A stretch of 28,824 bases of DNA from an uncultured delta proteobacterium (GTDB taxonomy: Bacteria; Desulfobacterota; Binatia; UBA9968). The position numbers and the translations under genes were made by a program. The stretch spans positions 1 to 28,824 of the forward strand of contig CAWJZV010000029.1 of assembly GCA_963847445.1 (NCBI GenBank). The letters are read 5' to 3'. Below are positions 16,235-24,791 of this stretch, piece after piece; positions within the stretch are counted from its first letter, which is position 1, and each line of letters begins with the position of its first letter. The notes below the pieces were generated by a model, which had not been told where the DNA came from, did not search any database, and saw only the letters and a list, made by a program, of their open reading frames with translations.

Positions 16235-17356
16235 CTACGCCCTTGGATACAACGCGTCGACCATCAAACGTTTATGATGACCCGGCGTGCCGAGATATTG
16301 ATACAGCGTATGGGCGAGGACGCTGTGCGCCATCATCGGGTGGCTGTAGTCCGTGCCCGGTCCGGCCCAGACCATGTGCGCGTAGTTGGTGCCATGATAG
16401 TAGCCGTCGCTGGCGGTGGCTTTGGCCTCATGGACACCGGCGCGGGCGTCCATGCCGGTCTCTAAGCGCCAGATCGCTTCATAGGTCGCCCAGCGCGCGG
16501 TGTCCAAACAGATCGAGATATCGACGCAGTGATCTTGGACGCGTTGAAAGCGGCCGATGGGTTGGCCGAAGACCACGCGGGTGCGGGTGTACTCGCAGGT
16601 GAAGTCAAAGACTTCCTGGGTAGCGCCGACTTGGTAGGCCGACAAAATCGGCAGCGCTCTGTCGAGAGCTTGTTCCAGCGTTGCCCAGCTGGCGCCGCTC
16701 GAGCCGAGCAGGTTCTCGGTCGTGACGACGACTTGGTCGAAGCGCACTTCAAAGACCGAGACGAAAAATCCGATATGCTGAGTCACCGTGATGCCGGGGC
16801 TTTTGGCGTCGACCAGCAAGAAGACCACTTTGCCTTCCTCGCTGCGCGCGGCGCAGAGAAAGCTCGTCGCGGCGTCGGCGTCAAAGACGAAACGCTTGGT
16901 GCCGTTCATCAAATAGCCACTGGGGGTTTTGCTCAAGCGGGTTTCGACCGCTTCCGGTCCCCAGTAGGCGGACTGGTCGGCGATCGCCGGTATGACGATT
17001 GCCTTGCCGCTGCACAACGCCGGCAGCAGCGCTTTTCTTTGCGCATCGGTACAGGCTTCGAAAATCATCTGAGCGCTGAGTATTCCCGAGGTGAACAGCG
17101 GCCCCGGCACCGGCCCATGGCCCAACTGTTCGAATACCACGGCGCAGTCCATCGGCGCTAAGCCGGCGCCGCCCCATTCCTCCGGCAACATCATGCCCAA
17201 CCAGCCGAGCTCGGCGGCTTTCTTCAAAATCTCCGGTCTAAACACTTGCTTGTTTTTGTACCACTGGGTCATCTGGTGCGCCGGCACTTCGGCTTTGACG
17301 AAATCCGCCGCGACTTTTTTCAACATTTCCTGGTCTTCGGTTAAACCTAAATCCAT
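16235..17356 (-). CDS. Acyl-CoA dehydrogenase family protein (probable partner subunit)
   Basis: LTEDQEML, ELGWLG...PEEWGGAG, GTKRFV, RVVFGQPIGRFQ; AGGAG RBS. Confidence 0.9.
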   Translation of the reverse strand: MDLGLTEDQEMLKKVAADFVKAEVPAHQMTQWYKNKQVFRPEILKKAAELGWLGMMLPEEWGGAGLAPMDCAVVFEQLGHGPVPGPLFTSGILSAQMIFEACTDAQRKALLPALCSGKAIVIPAIADQSAYWGPEAVETRLSKTPSGYLMNGTKRFVFDADAATSFLCAARSEEGKVVFLLVDAKSPGITVTQHIGFFVSVFEVRFDQVVVTTENLLGSSGASWATLEQALDRALPILSAYQVGATQEVFDFTCEYTRTRVVFGQPIGRFQRVQDHCVDISICLDTARWATYEAIWRLETGMDARAGVHEAKATASDGYYHGTNYAHMVWAGPGTDYSHPMMAHSVLAHTLYQYLGTPGHHKRLMVDALYPRA

Positions 17357-17371
17357 TTCTTTTCTCCTGCG

Positions 17372-17440
17372 TTTGGAACCATATGGAACCTTGGAACGAA
17401 AACAGCTCGTGTTTCAATCGTTCCAGATGTTCCAATCGTT
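17372..17440. repeat. Short palindromic repeat of TGGAAC/GTTCCA units
   Basis: Three TGGAAC units followed by inverted GTTCCA-like units. Confidence 0.6.
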
Positions 17441-17460: not shown

Positions 17461-18676
17461 TTAATGCGTCTCCGGCGCGGTCTCTTTGGTCGGACGGCCG
17501 AGGCCGAGACGGCGGGCGAAGATCAATCGGTCGGTGTCCAATGTGCCGCCGCCATGGAGCTGGCCCGGCCCGGTGCGCACAGCGTACTCGAAGTCGATGA
17601 CTTCGTGCACCGATAGATTTTGCACCAGGGCGTCGGCGCCCATGATCGCCTGCAAGCGCTCGCCGTTGCGCAGGCGCAACATTCTCTGAAAATAACGTTG
17701 TTGCGGGCCGCCGTAGGGATGCGGTTTCTTGGCGAACCGGCACCAGTAGATCAATTGATTGAAGCGGCGCAGAGTGTTCAACTCGATGGTCATGTCGGCG
17801 ACCAGGTCGCGCACGCGCGGATCTTCGATGATCGGTTTGCCGTCGATATGGGTATTGCGGCAGTACTCGACGACGCGTTCGATCAATGGGTCGACGGCGA
17901 TGCGGCCGTCGCCGCCATGTTCCAACTCCATGTGGGTGCTGGCGACTTTCCAGCCGTTGTTCTCGCCGCCGATCAAGTATTTCGCCGGCACGCGGACGTT
18001 GTCGAAGAACACCGCGTTTTTGATGCCCATCATCAGATTCATGTGTTGAATCGTGATGCCGGGAAGATTGGCCGGGATATGCAGCCAGGCGAGATTTTCA
18101 TGGCGCTTGCCCTGGGGGTTGGTGCATACCAGCGTCCACAGGTAATCCGGCGGCAGGTGGTGGCCGACCATGACTTTTTGACCATTGACGACATAGTGAT
18201 CGCCGTCGCGGATCGCCTTGGTCTGACAGTTGGCGATGTCGCTGCCGCCATGGGGTTCGGTGAGCACCTGCCAGACGCAGATTTGCGCCTTGGTGATGGC
18301 CGGCAAGAATTCCGCCTTCTGTTCCTCCGTGCCCCAGCGGATCAACACCGGCGCGACGATGCGCGCCAGGGTGTAAAACGTGTGCGAGAGATTGAGGCCG
18401 TACTTGAACAGCTCGGTTTCCAGGACCATCTGATGATCGACGGTGAGTTCGGCGCCGCCGTATTGTTTGGGATAGAGCGGGAACAGCCAGCCCTTGGCGC
18501 CGAGTTTTTCCGCCAGGCCGCGGCGGAACTTGTACTCGTCGGCGTCCTCGCGGGTCGACCAGGAGGCCGACCAGCGCAGATGCTCATTGACCTTTAAACT
18601 GCTCGGCAAGCCATGCGCCGACCTCTTTGCGAAACTCCACTACATGAGGTGGATCTGCACTGACGTTAAAATCCAT
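17461..18676 (-). CDS. Acyl-CoA dehydrogenase family protein (probable catalytic subunit), one frameshift near 18590
   Basis: AAGGAG RBS, MDFNVSADPPHVVEFRKEVGAWLAE, then a frame change; TEPHGGSD, NGQKV, VFFDNVRVP, GGENNGW, HGGGT. Confidence 0.88.
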
Positions 18677-20194: not shown

Positions 20195-20397
20195 CCTCTT
20201 TCAATTGGATCGAGACGGGGTCGTCGGCAGTTTGCAACTTTGGCTATCGCGGAGTGCATCCTGAGCAACAGCCGAAGGGCTTCACCCATCCTACAGGACT
20301 TGCGATCTCGGCTTGACTGAGAGCCGCGCGCAGGGTTATAGCTGCCAAGTTCGGCGAATGGGCCGACAATACGTCAACGTTCGGAGGAGCAAAATAG

Positions 20398-20805
20398 ATG
20401 AACTGGCAAGAAGCACTTCCCCTGTTGCAGGGAAATCATACTGGTGTCGCGGCGACTGTCACGCCGAAAGGCCGTGCACAGGCGACCATCGTCTCGACTG
20501 CGGTGCTGGACGGCAAGGTCGGCGTCGCGGCGCGGCCGCGCACCGTCAAGGCTAAAAACATCGAACGGACGGGCCGAGCGGCGATCACGGTCATCAAACT
20601 CGAAAACCGCCGTTACGTCACCGTCGAAGGGCCGGCGTCCATCGAACCGTGGCAAGACACCCCGGCGCACATCAAGCGGCTGAAAGACTTTTACGTTTCG
20701 ATGGGACGAGCCAAGGGAACTGACGAGGAATTTGCCAAGCAGATGCGCGAGGAGCAGCGCAGCCTGATTCTAGTTACCCCCGAGCAGCTCTACGGCAGTC
20801 TTTGA
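20398..20805 (+). CDS. Pyridoxamine 5'-phosphate oxidase-like (split barrel) protein, possibly F420-dependent
   Basis: GGAGGAG RBS; ATVTPKGRAQ, KAKNIERTGRAAITV, YVTVEGPA. Confidence 0.85.
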   Translation: MNWQEALPLLQGNHTGVAATVTPKGRAQATIVSTAVLDGKVGVAARPRTVKAKNIERTGRAAITVIKLENRRYVTVEGPASIEPWQDTPAHIKRLKDFYVSMGRAKGTDEEFAKQMREEQRSLILVTPEQLYGSL

Positions 20806-20900
20806 TCGGCAACCTGGCGAATTTTCCTTTCGCGTCCGCAGGCGTCGGGACGGCAAGCTGGCTTCTACAGTCAAACCAACCTGTCGCCGCGCGACTTGCG

Positions 20901-21059
20901 TCAGTCGCGCAATAGATATTCGCCCGAAAACTTCACCTGATCACTTTCCGGCAGCGGATGGTAGCGCGCCGCCTGAACGTCGCGGAACAGCCGTTCCAGA
21001 CCGAAATCGCGATAGAAACCCGCCCCTCCGACGATTTCCATCGCCTTGGTGACAACCCT
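20901..21059 (-). pseudogene. Acyl-CoA dehydrogenase C-terminal remnant
   Basis: Frame absent from the ORF track: VVTKAMEIVGGAGFYRDFGLERLFRDVQAARYHPLPESDQVKFSGEYLLRD*. Confidence 0.85.
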
Positions 21060-21255
21060 TTTCTAACGTCCAAGATCCTTTCGTAGTGCGCCAGGTTTTT
21101 TTGCCGCTCAACACATGAACAAAATAATCCATCGGCGTCCACACGCCGGCGACATCTTGCTCGATCGGGCACTTGTACTCGACGAAAAGCAGCTCCCCCA
21201 CCGCGAATTTATTGAAATGTAAATTGTCGCGAATCGTCTCGTACATATTCATCAT
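21056..21255 (-). pseudogene. AraC-family regulator N-terminal (cupin-like) remnant, no HTH
   Basis: MMNMYETIRDNLHFNKFAVGELLFVEYKCP...YFVHVLSGKKTWRT, cut off at the ACAD tail; family assigned from motif recall. Confidence 0.6.
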
Positions 21256-21603
21256 GGGGATCATAAAGCCATGGCCTCCGCCTGAATATTTGCCCAGCTC
21301 CTGCATGACTTACCGCACGACCATCTTGCTATTTTGCCGGGCGCTTTCCAAGCTTGGGTTAGGAAACTATATATCGAGTCGAGTGGTAATTGGAGCGCCT
21401 GCAATCGACCGTAATAGTCTTCTCGAGGATTGTAAAAATCCCTCGCGTTCAGGCCAAGAGAGGTTGGCATGCCGGCGCAGGCTCTGCGCCGTAACGACGG
21501 AAGCAAGGGTCAGCTTCGAAGCGACGGATTCACAACCACTCGCGTTCGAGCAGGGGGGGGTTACCAATGCGGTCCCGCGATTCTCGCGCAAGCTGATAAA
21601 AGG

Positions 21604-21633
21604 TTGACAGGATCGCTGATTAGCGCTTACTGT
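21604..21633 (+). promoter_or_regulatory. sigma70-like promoter upstream of GST
   Basis: TTGACA-N18-TACTGT. Confidence 0.5.
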
Positions 21634-21700
21634 CCAAAAAATATGGCGCGCGTTCGGGTGCGGTGCCCGACTTGCACGCTGCGCTAGTTCAAATCAACCG

Positions 21701-21801
21701 GGCATTTCGCGATCGGGGTATGAACCCCGCTCGCGACCAAAGTGGATGTTCAACCCCCTTTGGAAACCCCAGCAATTTTGTGCCCGCAGCAAGCTGCGGG
21801 G
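21701..21801 (+). repeat. ~100-nt structured element, copy 1
   Basis: Homologous to the reverse complement of 24851-24951; shared core CCCCCTTTGGAAACCCCA and two hairpins. Confidence 0.8.
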
Positions 21802-21834
21802 AATGTTAGATTCAAAAAAACCGGAGGTGTTCCC

Positions 21835-22464
21835 ATGATGACGCTCTATTTCAGTCCGGGCGCCTGTTCTTTGGCTTCGCATATTGGTCTCGAAGAAACC
21901 GGCGCGCCCTACGAGGCCAAGCCGATTCTTCTGGCCAAGGGACAGCAGCGCACCGAAGACTATCTGAAGATCAACCCGCGCGGTAAAGTCCCGGCGCTCA
22001 GCGTCGACGGCAAGATCCTGGTCGAGAACACCGGGATACTCACTTATCTGGCGCGGCGATTTCCGGAAAAGAAGCTGCTGCCGGCCGATCCCGCCGAGGA
22101 GGGGCGTTGCATCGGCACCATGTGCTGGTTTTCGAGCGTGGTCCATCCGTCGTACCAGCGCTTCCATCGGCCCGAGCGTTTCGCCGACAGCGAGGTGGCG
22201 CATGCCGCGGTCAAGGAAAACGGCCGAAAGTCGTTCTGGGCCAATCTTCAAGAGATCGACTCGATGATCCAAGCAAACGGCTGGGTCATGGGCAAAGAGT
22301 TCACCGCCGTCGATGGCTACGCTCTGGTTTTTTACGGCTGGGGCGCGCGCAGCGGGTTTCCCATGAAGGACCTCGGTGCCTACACGGCATGGCGGGAGCG
22401 CATGATGCAGCGCCCGACGGTTCGGAAAAGTGTCGAGAGCGAGGAAAGCGTTTCGGCGTCATAG
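21835..22464 (+). CDS. gstA: Glutathione S-transferase, beta class
   Basis: GGAGG RBS; LYFSPGACSLASHIGLEE, INPRGKVPAL, EFTAVDGY. Confidence 0.92.
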   Translation: MMTLYFSPGACSLASHIGLEETGAPYEAKPILLAKGQQRTEDYLKINPRGKVPALSVDGKILVENTGILTYLARRFPEKKLLPADPAEEGRCIGTMCWFSSVVHPSYQRFHRPERFADSEVAHAAVKENGRKSFWANLQEIDSMIQANGWVMGKEFTAVDGYALVFYGWGARSGFPMKDLGAYTAWRERMMQRPTVRKSVESEESVSAS

Positions 22465-22634
22465 TTCGTCATCGAATACTCGCCGCCGCTTGCGGGAAAT
22501 AAATCGTTGCGGCGCGTCATCGCAGCGGAATGCGCTCCCGGTTTGCACTTGAGATTGATTCTTATTGATGAGCCCGCTGATTTAGCTTTCATGCTCCCTC
22601 GTGGTGGCGCGGCTTGAAGGTGGCATTAGAACGT

Positions 22635-23099
22635 ATGTCCGAGCACTACGGTAAACATCCGCTCGCAACCGTGCCGGGAGTGTTTGCGCTTGCCCTATGG
22701 TCGGTTTACTCGCTTTACGCGGCGCTTTACTATCCCGATGTCCTTACCTCAATGCTCATTGCCGGTTGCTTCGGCTTGGCCGCCTGCTTGGCTGTGGTCT
22801 TTAATTTTACCTATTGGCGTTCCACTGTGTTGCTGGCGTCATCGGTTTATTTGTTGCTCTATGTGATTCGAATCGTGCGCATGACGGCGATTGCGAAAGA
22901 TTTCTCGTTTCTGTCTGCGCTCTCCTTTTATTACAGCGCCTCGTGGCGCGTGGCTACGGGCGCGTTTGAAGAGAAAGGTTTGGTGGGTGGTTTGACACAT
23001 GCCTTTTTAGAATTCGCAATGCCCGTGCTGGTGATCGCTCTTATCTCAGTTATTCTATTAACTTCGCGACGGAAGCTTGGCGTTCCGCGGCCCGGCTGA
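22635..23099 (+). CDS. Hypothetical membrane protein (about four TM segments)
   Basis: Long hydrophobic stretches and a basic C-terminus; start uncertain (22614 or 22635). Confidence 0.7.
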   Translation: MSEHYGKHPLATVPGVFALALWSVYSLYAALYYPDVLTSMLIAGCFGLAACLAVVFNFTYWRSTVLLASSVYLLLYVIRIVRMTAIAKDFSFLSALSFYYSASWRVATGAFEEKGLVGGLTHAFLEFAMPVLVIALISVILLTSRRKLGVPRPG

Positions 23100-23216
23100 T
23101 CCAGAGAACCGTGGCGAGAAAAGAGGCCGGTTAGATTTTCTGGCCATCACGAAACTTTTCTGCTTCTATAGAGACAGTGTCGCACCTCAGCATCGAAGGA
23201 AACAGGAGGAAACTAT

Positions 23217-23805
23217 ATGGCCAGGATCAAAGGCGTAACGGAAAGGGACGCCAATGATGATGTGCGGCAGATTGTCGAAGAGCAGAAGAAGCGCCACGGA
23301 TTTGTCTCAAACGCTGCGCAGGTGTCCGCCGTAAGGCCGACAATTCAGAAGGGAGTTCAGGCGCTCGCCGGGGAATTCAGGATTCAGGACTGATAGCGCA
23401 GGAGTTACGCAACCTGGTCTGCGTCAGGACTGCTCACATCAATGGCTGTCCTTATTGAATTGATAGTAACGCATCCGGGGCGATGCAAAACGGAGCGGCG
23501 GGGGACAAGGTCGAAGCCGCATTGGGCGATTACAAGAAAAATCCATTGTTTTCCTTGCGCGAGCGGCTGGCGCTGGAGCTGGCGGAGCGAATGACCTACA
23601 CGGGCAAACGGGTCTCGGATAAGTTTTTCAATCGTCTCAAAAAGCATTTTAGCGACGAGGAATTAGTCGAATTGGCGGCGGTGATCGCCCTCGAGAACTT
23701 TCGCAGTAAGTTCAACCCGGTGTTCGCCATCGAGGCGAACAATTTCTGCCCTCTGCCGGAATCAAAGAAGCTGCCGCCGCCGCCACGCGGCGCTTCCGTG
23801 AGTGA
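23217..23805 (+). CDS. AhpD/carboxymuconolactone decarboxylase-family protein with CxxU motif (probable selenoprotein)
   Basis: AGGAGG RBS; MARIKGV...LRNLVCVRTAHINGCPY-TGA(23456-23458)-IDSNASGAMQ, in frame with ORF 23483 (FSLRERLALELAERMT, HFSDEELVEL, ENFRSKFN). One-base frameshifts at the G run 23370-23373 and probably near 23759. Confidence 0.8.
23471..23486 (+). promoter_or_regulatory. Candidate bacterial SECIS hairpin
   Basis: GCATC-CGGGGC-GATGC, starting after a 12-nt spacer from the in-frame TGA; G-rich loop. Confidence 0.5.
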
Positions 23806-23947
23806 GACGATGCATTTTGCAAATTGAGACGAGCGATCTCATCGCTATTCGTTGGGCCGCGAAGAACTCGGCTCACGGGCGAGAACGTTGATTTTCAACG
23901 ATTGGAGCGCTCACTGACTCTTACGCCGTTCGACCAGGCAAAGCACC

Positions 23948-24458
23948 ATGTGGGACTATACCGGCCATAGGCGGCCGCCTTCGCCGGTACCCGGATCCCG
24001 ACAGGAGTCGGTGTGGGATTATCCTCGGCCGCCCAAACTTGTTGCAGACCATCGGCGCATCGTCGTGCAATGCGGCGATCTTCCCATCGCCGACTCGCGT
24101 GAAACTTATCGCGTCCTGGAGACTGCGGGACCGCCGACTTGTACCGTTCCGGCAGGAATGTGCATGCGGAGCTGCTGAAGCCGTTTCCGGCACGTCGATT
24201 TGCGAATGGAAAGGCGCGGCCCAGTATGGACATTGGCAACGTCGATAGCGCCGCGAGAAGCGATCGCCTGGAGTTATCCGCGGGCGCAAGCGCCATACGG
24301 CGCGATTGCCGATTGCTTTTCCTTCTATCCCGGTCGCGTCGACTGTTGCGTCGATGGCGAGCGCGTGCGCCGCAGGCCCAGGTTATTTCTATGGCGGTTG
24401 GATAACCGATGAAATTGTCGGTCCTTGGAAAGGGGAGCCGGGGACGGAAGGGTGGTAG
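23948..24458 (+). CDS. DUF427-domain protein, multiple frameshifts
   Basis: QESVWDYPRPP, RVLETAGPPT, SICEWKGAA, AWSYP, FSFYPGRVDC, FYGGWIT...GPWKGEPGTEGW* across frames. Confidence 0.85.
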
Positions 24459-24464
24459 CCGGCG

Positions 24465-24791
24465 ATGTTTAGGGAAGAGGGCGCAGTTTTGTTTTTCTTC
24501 CTTGATAGCGCTTGCGACGTCAATCGCCGTTTGGTGCAGGTGCTCACAGCTGCCGAAGAGTTCGGTCATCCGATGATGGCACCTCCCGCCACGCCGCCGG
24601 ATCGGGTGAAGCTCTTACGCCAGGCTTATGCAAAAGCCCTAAGAGACCCGGAGCTGTTGGCCGAAGCGCAAAAAGCGCAATGGGAGCTGGATCCGGTCAC
24701 AGGGGAAGATCTCCAGGAACTGGCGCGCCGGGTGGTGGAGCAACCGCCGGCGGTCATCGAGCAGATCAAAAGAATCTTGCGTTCGAACTAG
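24465..24791 (+). pseudogene. Bug/TctC-like SBP remnant (signal-like head plus C-terminal third)
   Basis: FGHPMMAPPATPPDRVKLLRQAYAKALRDPELLAEAQK parallels the C-terminus of 8115-9200; preceded only by a short hydrophobic head. Confidence 0.75.

Follow-up and report, generated by a model that had tools for sequence, protein, structure and literature searches.

The window analysed here is a stretch of 28,824 nucleotides (nt) from an uncultured delta proteobacterium; it is the whole of contig C29 (CAWJZV010000029.1) of a metagenome-assembled genome (MAG; GCA_963847445.1) that has 48 contigs and 7.19 Mb and is 91.8% complete and 6.9% contaminated. Window positions 23217-23805 read as one gene of the AhpD/CMD family, the product of which is 196 amino acids (aa) long in relatives; the gene lies on the plus strand, as do all the features of the locus given below. 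The gene looks broken because a stop-like UGA hides it from gene finders and, most likely, because the assembly dropped two single bases, and the list of open reading frames (ORFs) made with translation table 11 contains only a 58-aa piece (23217-23393) and a 114-aa piece (23483-23827). A Shine-Dalgarno-like AGGAGG (23204-23209), read directly, lies 7 nt upstream of the start codon, the ATG at 23217-19, and the purine-rich run before the ATG is kept in the 7 aligned orthologues. Left unaided, the frame of the ATG at 23217 reads MARIKGVTERDAN...QALAGEFRIQD and stops at 23391-93; the first coding part in this frame, MARIKGVTERDAN...QALA (23217-23368), aligns collinearly with the starts of the 196-aa homologues. 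The second frame reads GIQDSGLIAQELRNLVCVRTAHINGCPY-TGA-IDSNASGAMQNGAAGDK... and reaches 23827 once the TGA at 23456-58 is read through. The middle coding part, ..GIQDSGLIAQELRNLVCVRTAHINGCPY-U-IDSNASGAMQ...NNFCPL (23369-23755), holds the CMD/AhpD core, and within it the motif ...INGCPY-TGA-IDSNASGAMQ... stands in a single frame. There a TGT (23447-23449) encodes the first Cys of a CxxU redox motif, in a column that is invariant in alignments A1, A2 and A3, and the in-frame TGA (23456-23458) would encode selenocysteine (Sec, U), residue U81 of the 196-aa protein, to judge from TGA conservation in homologues and from pairing with Cys in paralogues. The last coding part, ..GIKEAAAAATRRF..E (23756-23805), is placed in the relatives' frame by an alignment of 7 orthologues and by the orthologue translations, and ends at the stop TGA 23803-05. 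A preliminary description of the locus had named the ribosome-binding site, the ATG at 23217, the NGCPY-TGA, the continuation in the same frame and a downstream hairpin, and on direct reading each of these lies where it had been put.

The UGA is conserved wherever close homologues were found. When 41 genomes, the window's own and 40 relatives, were searched in six frames, 29 matches of 69-99% identity were obtained, and a TGA lay inside the match in all 29. One locus (L030; 76% identity, one TGA) fell outside the motif pattern; an unpublished genome (G005), on which no claim rests, supplied one genus sequence out of the 29 (L035) and one match to the tRNA for Sec (tRNA-Sec). At 24 of the 29 related loci nothing interrupts the frame of 196-197 codons, which starts with M(A/L)RI(K/T/R)G, contains a single U and is open to its end, and this speaks against the separately translated halves that the preliminary description had kept as a possibility. 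The five exceptions are the window, the copy of it that lies on contig C8, two loci in which the frame is disturbed near the N-terminus (L044 and L045) and one with masked Ns (L050). The natural ends of 26 of the genes are TGA in 15, TAA in 7 and TAG in 4; since TGA ends 15 of these 26 genes it is a genuine stop, and the internal TGA therefore needs local recoding. A scan of one genome per species covered 287 relatives, and among the 80 loci kept from it the Sec codon was TGA in 80, with no Cys form. Most of them come from MAGs that bear the label Candidatus Binatia, "delta proteobacterium" or Thermodesulfobacteriota, and a few from Chloroflexota/Dehalococcoidia.

Cys at the Sec position was found further away. 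At 27 distant paralogue loci of the same genus (L150-L176) the Sec column held Cys in 5 (for example INGCAYCIDMH), UGA in 4 and Val or Ile in 10, and the motif did not align in 8. As aligned, the Cys opposite UGA in these paralogues is the classical Sec/Cys pairing, seen only at 26-32% identity. With the window read in the frame of its orthologues, the ratio of nonsynonymous to synonymous substitution rates (dN/dS) against 4 orthologues was 0.059-0.099 over 193-194 codons spanning the UGA, and both flanks of the UGA are under purifying selection. The contigs of the 4 sequencing runs that cover the codon show no other letter at 23456-58, so that the TGC or TGT which the preliminary description had wished to see excluded does not appear in these independent contigs. 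On these alignments the UGA is conserved far beyond chance. The proposal that it is recoded, made in the preliminary description together with the suggestion to align homologues, has gained support from the TGA in all close homologues (29/29) and public loci (80/80), from the Cys of the distant paralogues and from the sel genes described below.

A hairpin resembling a Sec insertion sequence (SECIS) starts 12 nt after the UGA (23471-23486). Its arms, GCATC (23471-75) and GATGC (23482-86), give GCAUC and GAUGC in the RNA and enclose the loop CGGGGC. The RNAalifold consensus is exactly this hairpin, the one singled out in the preliminary description, both in the 29 genus sequences and in 75 distinct sequences. 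All 5 core pairs are standard in 75/75 distinct sequences and 2 pairs have changed on both sides; one core pair is AU in 59, GU in 11 and GC in 5, and another is UA in 72 and UG in 3. A sixth pair is CG in 43, GC in 4 and unpaired in 28, the window being among the unpaired. None of 500 shuffles reached the observed paired share, the observed count of cells changed on both sides or the observed covariation score, and in slid controls, in which the partner was moved by 1-3 columns, 16-53% of the cells were paired, against 93.8% observed. Synonymous-codon entropy, taken from 55 gapless coding sequences, had a mean of 1.59 bits over the 68 codons with at least 4 synonymous forms; codons 86, 87 and 88 (Ala-Ser-Ser/Gly), which make up the 5' arm and loop, had 0.68, 0.13 and 0.0 bits and rank among the four codons with the least synonymous variation in the gene. 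A G is present in every apical loop (GGGG, AGUG or GGUG) and is invariant at alignment columns 32 and 34. A G in a small apical loop is a feature named for bacterial SECIS elements in the excerpted text of PMC1088965; the stem-loop, downstream of the UGA and with a G in its small apical loop, agrees with that wording, and binding of SelB to it is predicted.

The genome of the window carries selA, selB and selD in a row (G000:C14:191492-195726, where G000 is the window's own genome). The selA gene scores 569.8 bits and selD 360.3 bits, and selB is present as four frame pieces. The selD gene has a Sec codon of its own, a UGA in ...KSAGUAAKLGPGDL. Elsewhere, tRNA-Sec was clear in 10 of the 13 genomes searched (74-78 bits); among the same-genus genomes, 6 of 8 have a tRNA-Sec of 75-77 bits, and the other two are only 65% and 84% complete. 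Two candidates for tRNA-Sec in the window's genome were rejected: the best matches to RF01852 (at most 45 bits; contig C46) are tRNA-Ser genes, and the "tRNA-SeC" that aragorn reports at C2:139122-139203 (82 nt) lies in coding-like sequence, and its A/U acceptor stem is weak and contains mismatches. When the tRNA-Sec of a relative was used with its flanks, it matched in two places. C4:239397-239486 holds the first 23 nt (239463-239486), with 2 substitutions, and the upstream flank; C12:77602-77280 holds the last 24 nt (77579-77602) and the downstream flank, and a tyrosine integrase gene (Arm-DNA-bind_2, 78 bits; Phage_integrase, 33.7 bits) at C12:77653-78855, on the minus strand, adjoins this 3' piece. 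The split may stem from the integration of an element, from a rearrangement or from a join made in assembly. Of the four genes that the preliminary description had listed for a search of the genome, selA, selB and selD were thus found, and selC, the gene for tRNA-Sec, only as the two fragments.

By profile matches the gene falls in the AhpD/CMD superfamily, closest to the YciW-type group, and is not a member of any curated equivalog. The middle part of the window gene scores 35.2 bits with Pfam CMD PF02627 (cut-off 23), and with TIGR00778, the AhpD core domain (cut-off 27.8), the window scores 30.1 bits and an intact orthologue 33.4 bits. NCBIfam has several "(seleno)protein" AhpD models, and both pieces of the window gene match one of these, NF053654 "YciW-related (seleno)protein", collinearly, the first at positions 1-50 (26.8 bits) and the second at positions 53-173 (118 bits); the two pieces therefore make one gene with a change of frame near profile position 51. 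The intact orthologue spans positions 1-172 of the 179 of this profile at 162 bits, the equivalog cut-off being 310, and the whole-protein scores of three intact relatives are 162, 161.5 and 169.4 bits, all below 310. With TIGR01926, the peroxidase-related enzyme (cut-off 81.8), three intact relatives score 63.7, 38.8 and 34.6 bits, again all below. NF053654, "GroundWater_YciW", is the best-scoring curated family, is matched collinearly over its full length and is annotated with Sec forms, whereas the scores under the NCBI equivalog threshold would make the window gene a sister subfamily. A profile of 15 relatives also finds solved proteins of CMD/AhpD fold, namely 2gmy (Atu0492), 2o4d (PA0269), 6ohi (Bmp8) and 6k40 (E 4.6e-14 to 5e-07); by sequence profile the CMD fold is the same, with the redox pair in the same helix motif.

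In Mycobacterium tuberculosis AhpD the nucleophilic attack comes from the second residue of CxxC, and the mixed intermediate is resolved by the first Cys; deprotonation of the nucleophile is assisted by a His four residues further along, by way of a Glu-His-water proton relay. The window gene differs from this protein and from the solved AhpD/CMD proteins in having Sec for the second Cys and Asn for the His, and it differs from M. tuberculosis AhpD in having no adjacent ahpC. Residues C78, P79, Y/F80, U81, D83 and N85 are invariant across the alignments. In place of CxxC followed by His at +4, the sequence here is CPYU IDS N, and the Asn at +4 is invariant in alignment A2; the assignment to the CMD/AhpD fold, made from sequence profiles, stands despite the absent proton-relay His. 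In the mechanism we propose, UGA 23456-58 would be decoded as Sec by SelB bound to Sec-tRNA(Sec), with SelB recruited by the short mRNA hairpin that begins 12 nt downstream and has a G-containing apical loop. By homology, a selenolate would stand where the AhpD CxxC has its nucleophilic second Cys, and a selenenyl-sulfide with Cys78 would form during reduction of a peroxide or disulfide. Asn instead of His at +4 would be in keeping with a selenol already in ionised form at neutral pH. None of the 4 UGA-bearing paralogues has His at +4 (N, G, G and R stand there), and 3 of the 5 Cys forms have it (CAYCIDMH). This apparent anticorrelation of Sec with the His at +4 is only a lead, as the sample is small and the sequences are related. 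A third group of paralogues has neither Cys nor Sec and keeps the His (VEYVQRAH). Together, close members that are all Sec and the Asn at +4 offer a modest starting point, open to test, for asking how an AhpD-type site is altered when sulfur gives way to selenium.

Two breaks divide the frame. At the first (23367-23373) one C has been lost from the C run before GGGG, where relatives read GCC CAG/CGG GGA; at the second (23750-23759) one C has been lost where relatives read CTGCCCGG and the window reads CTGCCGG. In an alignment with 7 orthologues of 78-91% DNA identity to the window, all 7 have one extra base at the first break, and a second base is missing from the window at CTG-C(C)C-GG near 23755. 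With both bases restored the protein ends ...AAAAATRRF.E at the TGA 23803-05, not at 23827, and the gene end at 23805 given in the preliminary description is thus recovered once the C behind 23755 is put back. Contigs of four out of four independent public runs (X1, X3, X5 and X7) carry a C inserted behind 23367 and another behind 23755; the X1 contig has only 9 other differing letters over 795 bases. The preliminary description had proposed a single frameshift in the G run at 23370 and had put it down to sequencing error. There is a break at that place, and what causes it is a C missing from the preceding C run, as the 4 run contigs and the 7 orthologues agree; the second loss, behind 23755, where the 4 run contigs again carry the extra C, had been missed. 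The attribution to error is supported, in that the independent contigs restore the frame with an extra base at a G/C run. Two other causes were discarded. A 7-nt tandem duplication at the first break (ATTCAGG twice, 23375-23388) does not explain it, in that removal of one copy gives the wrong frame and the orthologues keep both copies; programmed frameshifting was rejected because relatives need no shift. From these comparisons the two breaks are most likely assembly errors and not biological.

The MAG has a second copy of the region. The whole window contig (C29, 1-28824) is a 93-98% identical duplicate of G000:C8:128382-154957, which suggests that two strains were binned together. Between the copies there are dozens of single-base gaps, with 35 gap openings in the 3.2 kb around the gene. 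The C8 copy is in frame at the first break (ALARGIQDSG), keeps the TGA and has a frameshift of its own just after the Sec codon. Single-base indels are also found in non-sel genes that neighbour the sel genes on C14: compared with relatives they lie at 186812, 187299, 197137 and some 20 places in 198492-203000, a segment in which one relative (G004) has clean ORFs of 440, 423 and 498 aa. The rpoB and rpoC genes, on contig C34, are intact, and a uniformly bad assembly was rejected because of them; contigs differ in how noisy they are. Most simply, single-base errors would have remained in those parts of a long-contig assembly that have poor support and mix strains. Without reads, a broken frame in this MAG should not be taken as biology.

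From the UGA conservation, the hairpin, the family, the sel genes and the pattern of indels we infer Sec insertion and a catalytic role, and we put at roughly 0.83 the probability that the locus encodes a 196-residue thiol-selenol oxidoreductase of AhpD/CMD fold with a Cys-Pro-Tyr-Sec active site, its breaks being single-base losses in C runs through error-prone assembly of a low-quality, strain-variant contig. A number of observations weigh on the other side. The stability of the hairpin is no better than that of shuffled sequence (z = -0.71, -0.64, -1.11 and -0.97), and the window's own minimum-energy fold chooses another pairing; thermodynamic stability was dropped as evidence for these reasons, and the support for the hairpin comes from conservation across the alignments. 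The compensatory changes fall mainly in one clade (5 Chloroflexota/Dehalococcoidia sequences) and so represent few independent events, and an Rfam scan of 23100-23950, with E up to 10, gave no SECIS family and only a chance lncRNA match. No intact tRNA-Sec gene was found in the 91.8%-complete MAG, and the frame is broken once in selA, four times in selB and once in selD, by one-base extra letters when set against two or three relatives. The four runs are represented by contigs of related populations, 95-99% like the window, and not by the source reads. Intact rpoB and rpoC mean that the indel noise is not uniform, and the mutations may be real for contig C29.

One rival account is that the gene is a recent pseudogene in this strain, with both one-base deletions real and the selenoprotein no longer made. 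Two breaks in 590 bases of the given sequence, in a MAG where genes as long as rpoB and rpoC are clean, would suit such an account; we nevertheless find it unlikely, for the dN/dS of 0.06-0.10 against orthologues gives no sign of relaxed selection, each loss falls in a C run, both Cs are present in the nearest natural sequences, which are the contigs of all four runs, and adjacent unrelated genes, here and on C14, are equally rich in single-base indels. A broader form of decay would be a collapse of the Sec trait as a whole, in which the frame breaks are real, an element bearing an integrase has split tRNA-Sec, and selA, selB, selD and the selenoprotein genes then decay. The two tRNA-Sec fragments, the 5' one with 2 substitutions and the 3' one with the integrase beside it, would be expected from this, as would the breaks in selA (1), selB (4), selD (1) and both copies of the present gene. 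We consider it very unlikely: the breaks are not enriched in sel genes, their non-sel neighbours on C14 having as many or more; the MAG is incomplete, 6.9% contaminated and composed of at least two strains, so that an intact tRNA-Sec may simply be unassembled; and 6 of the 8 same-genus genomes searched have one. Finally, the UGA could be an ordinary stop that separates two small proteins, or could be read as Trp or Cys to give a selenium-free protein. Public gene calls treat the locus in this way, since 109 of the best 120 database matches are 107-aa second halves and 4 of 5 full-length public calls translate the codon as W, and the second half does have an ATG of its own at 23483. A stop conserved in the middle of a motif (80/80 and 29/29), within a single-domain fold and with purifying selection on both sides, is not expected of two proteins, and with 15 of the 26 genes ending in TGA, the codon does not have a sense meaning throughout the genome. 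With Cys aligned at the UGA in paralogues, the synonymous sites of the hairpin frozen and the sel genes present, these accounts are barely credible, and the selenoprotein with assembly-damaged frame remains the reading we prefer.

Selenoproteins of this kind have long been known. Sequences from the Sargasso Sea reported in 2005 included 27 AhpD-like (COG2128/YciW) and 4 CMD-domain CxxU selenoproteins, according to excerpts of that report (PMC1088965), and the available parts of later reviews tabulate AhpD-like selenoproteins (PMC9312934, PMC13188914). The preliminary description was thus right to call CxxU AhpD-like selenoproteins a recognised class, at least as excerpts of the 2005 report present it (PMC1088965). 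The window gene shares with the Sargasso Sea AhpD-like CxxU proteins (COG2128/YciW, TIGR01926), as excerpted, the CMD/AhpD core, Sec at the second CxxC position, a small hairpin with a G in the loop just downstream of the UGA, and a history of being missed by gene finders (PMC1088965). It differs from that group in that its intact orthologue is below the TIGR01926 cut-off and Asn replaces the His at +4, in that every close relative uses Sec, with no Cys form in the 80 kept loci, and in its hosts, which are soil and groundwater MAGs of Binatia type, as labelled, set against the Sargasso Sea origin given in the excerpts (PMC1088965). A search of the literature on Binatia selenoproteins found nothing relevant among the papers listed, and the supplementary tables of selenoprotein reviews or BSepDB may already list the subfamily. 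Among the best 120 matches in the protein collection no name says selenoprotein, as far as names were shown. These public proteins (P0002-P0121) nearly all comprise just the 107-aa C-terminal half, beginning with the Met that follows the hairpin, and a few have Trp at the Sec codon. As the public calls are second halves or have W at Sec, the active site is invisible to those who use them. The window gene adds a new, as yet unannotated member to a familiar class of selenoproteins, viewed here through a noisy assembly. Its main value is for annotation, the subfamily being found widely among soil and groundwater MAGs that carry the label Binatia or "delta proteobacterium".

The neighbours of the gene in the window are a glutathione S-transferase (GST) gene, a 161-aa ORF of no family (22614-23096; hydrophobic by eye), a DUF427-like gene and an Amdase-like gene. 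The DUF427-like gene (23948-24458, plus strand), downstream, is split over several frames and has lost single bases at no fewer than 7 places compared with three relatives. At 17391, near the junction of two minus-strand frames of 392 codons (16238-17413 and 17464-18639), the window has one C fewer than all three relatives. In the window and in the C8 copy the AhpD-like gene sits after the GST gene and the extra 161-aa ORF; in two other genomes (G003, L051; G004, L052), compared over window 20300-24500, it sits between the block at window 20800 and the GST gene, and its position is thus not fixed within the genus. Because the gene is on the other side of GST in G003 and G004, no operon logic can be claimed. 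The hint of a GST-containing redox cluster in the preliminary description accordingly loses most of its force, gene order differing between genomes of the genus, and a functional GST-AhpD cluster is unsupported. Further AhpD-like sequences with an in-frame TGA lie elsewhere in the genome: G000:C42:99851-100252 and G000:C16:39719-40075 account for a copy of a second subfamily, 73% identical and with one TGA, and for at least one match that is more distant. Judging from these matches, the organism probably has several CxxU proteins of AhpD fold.

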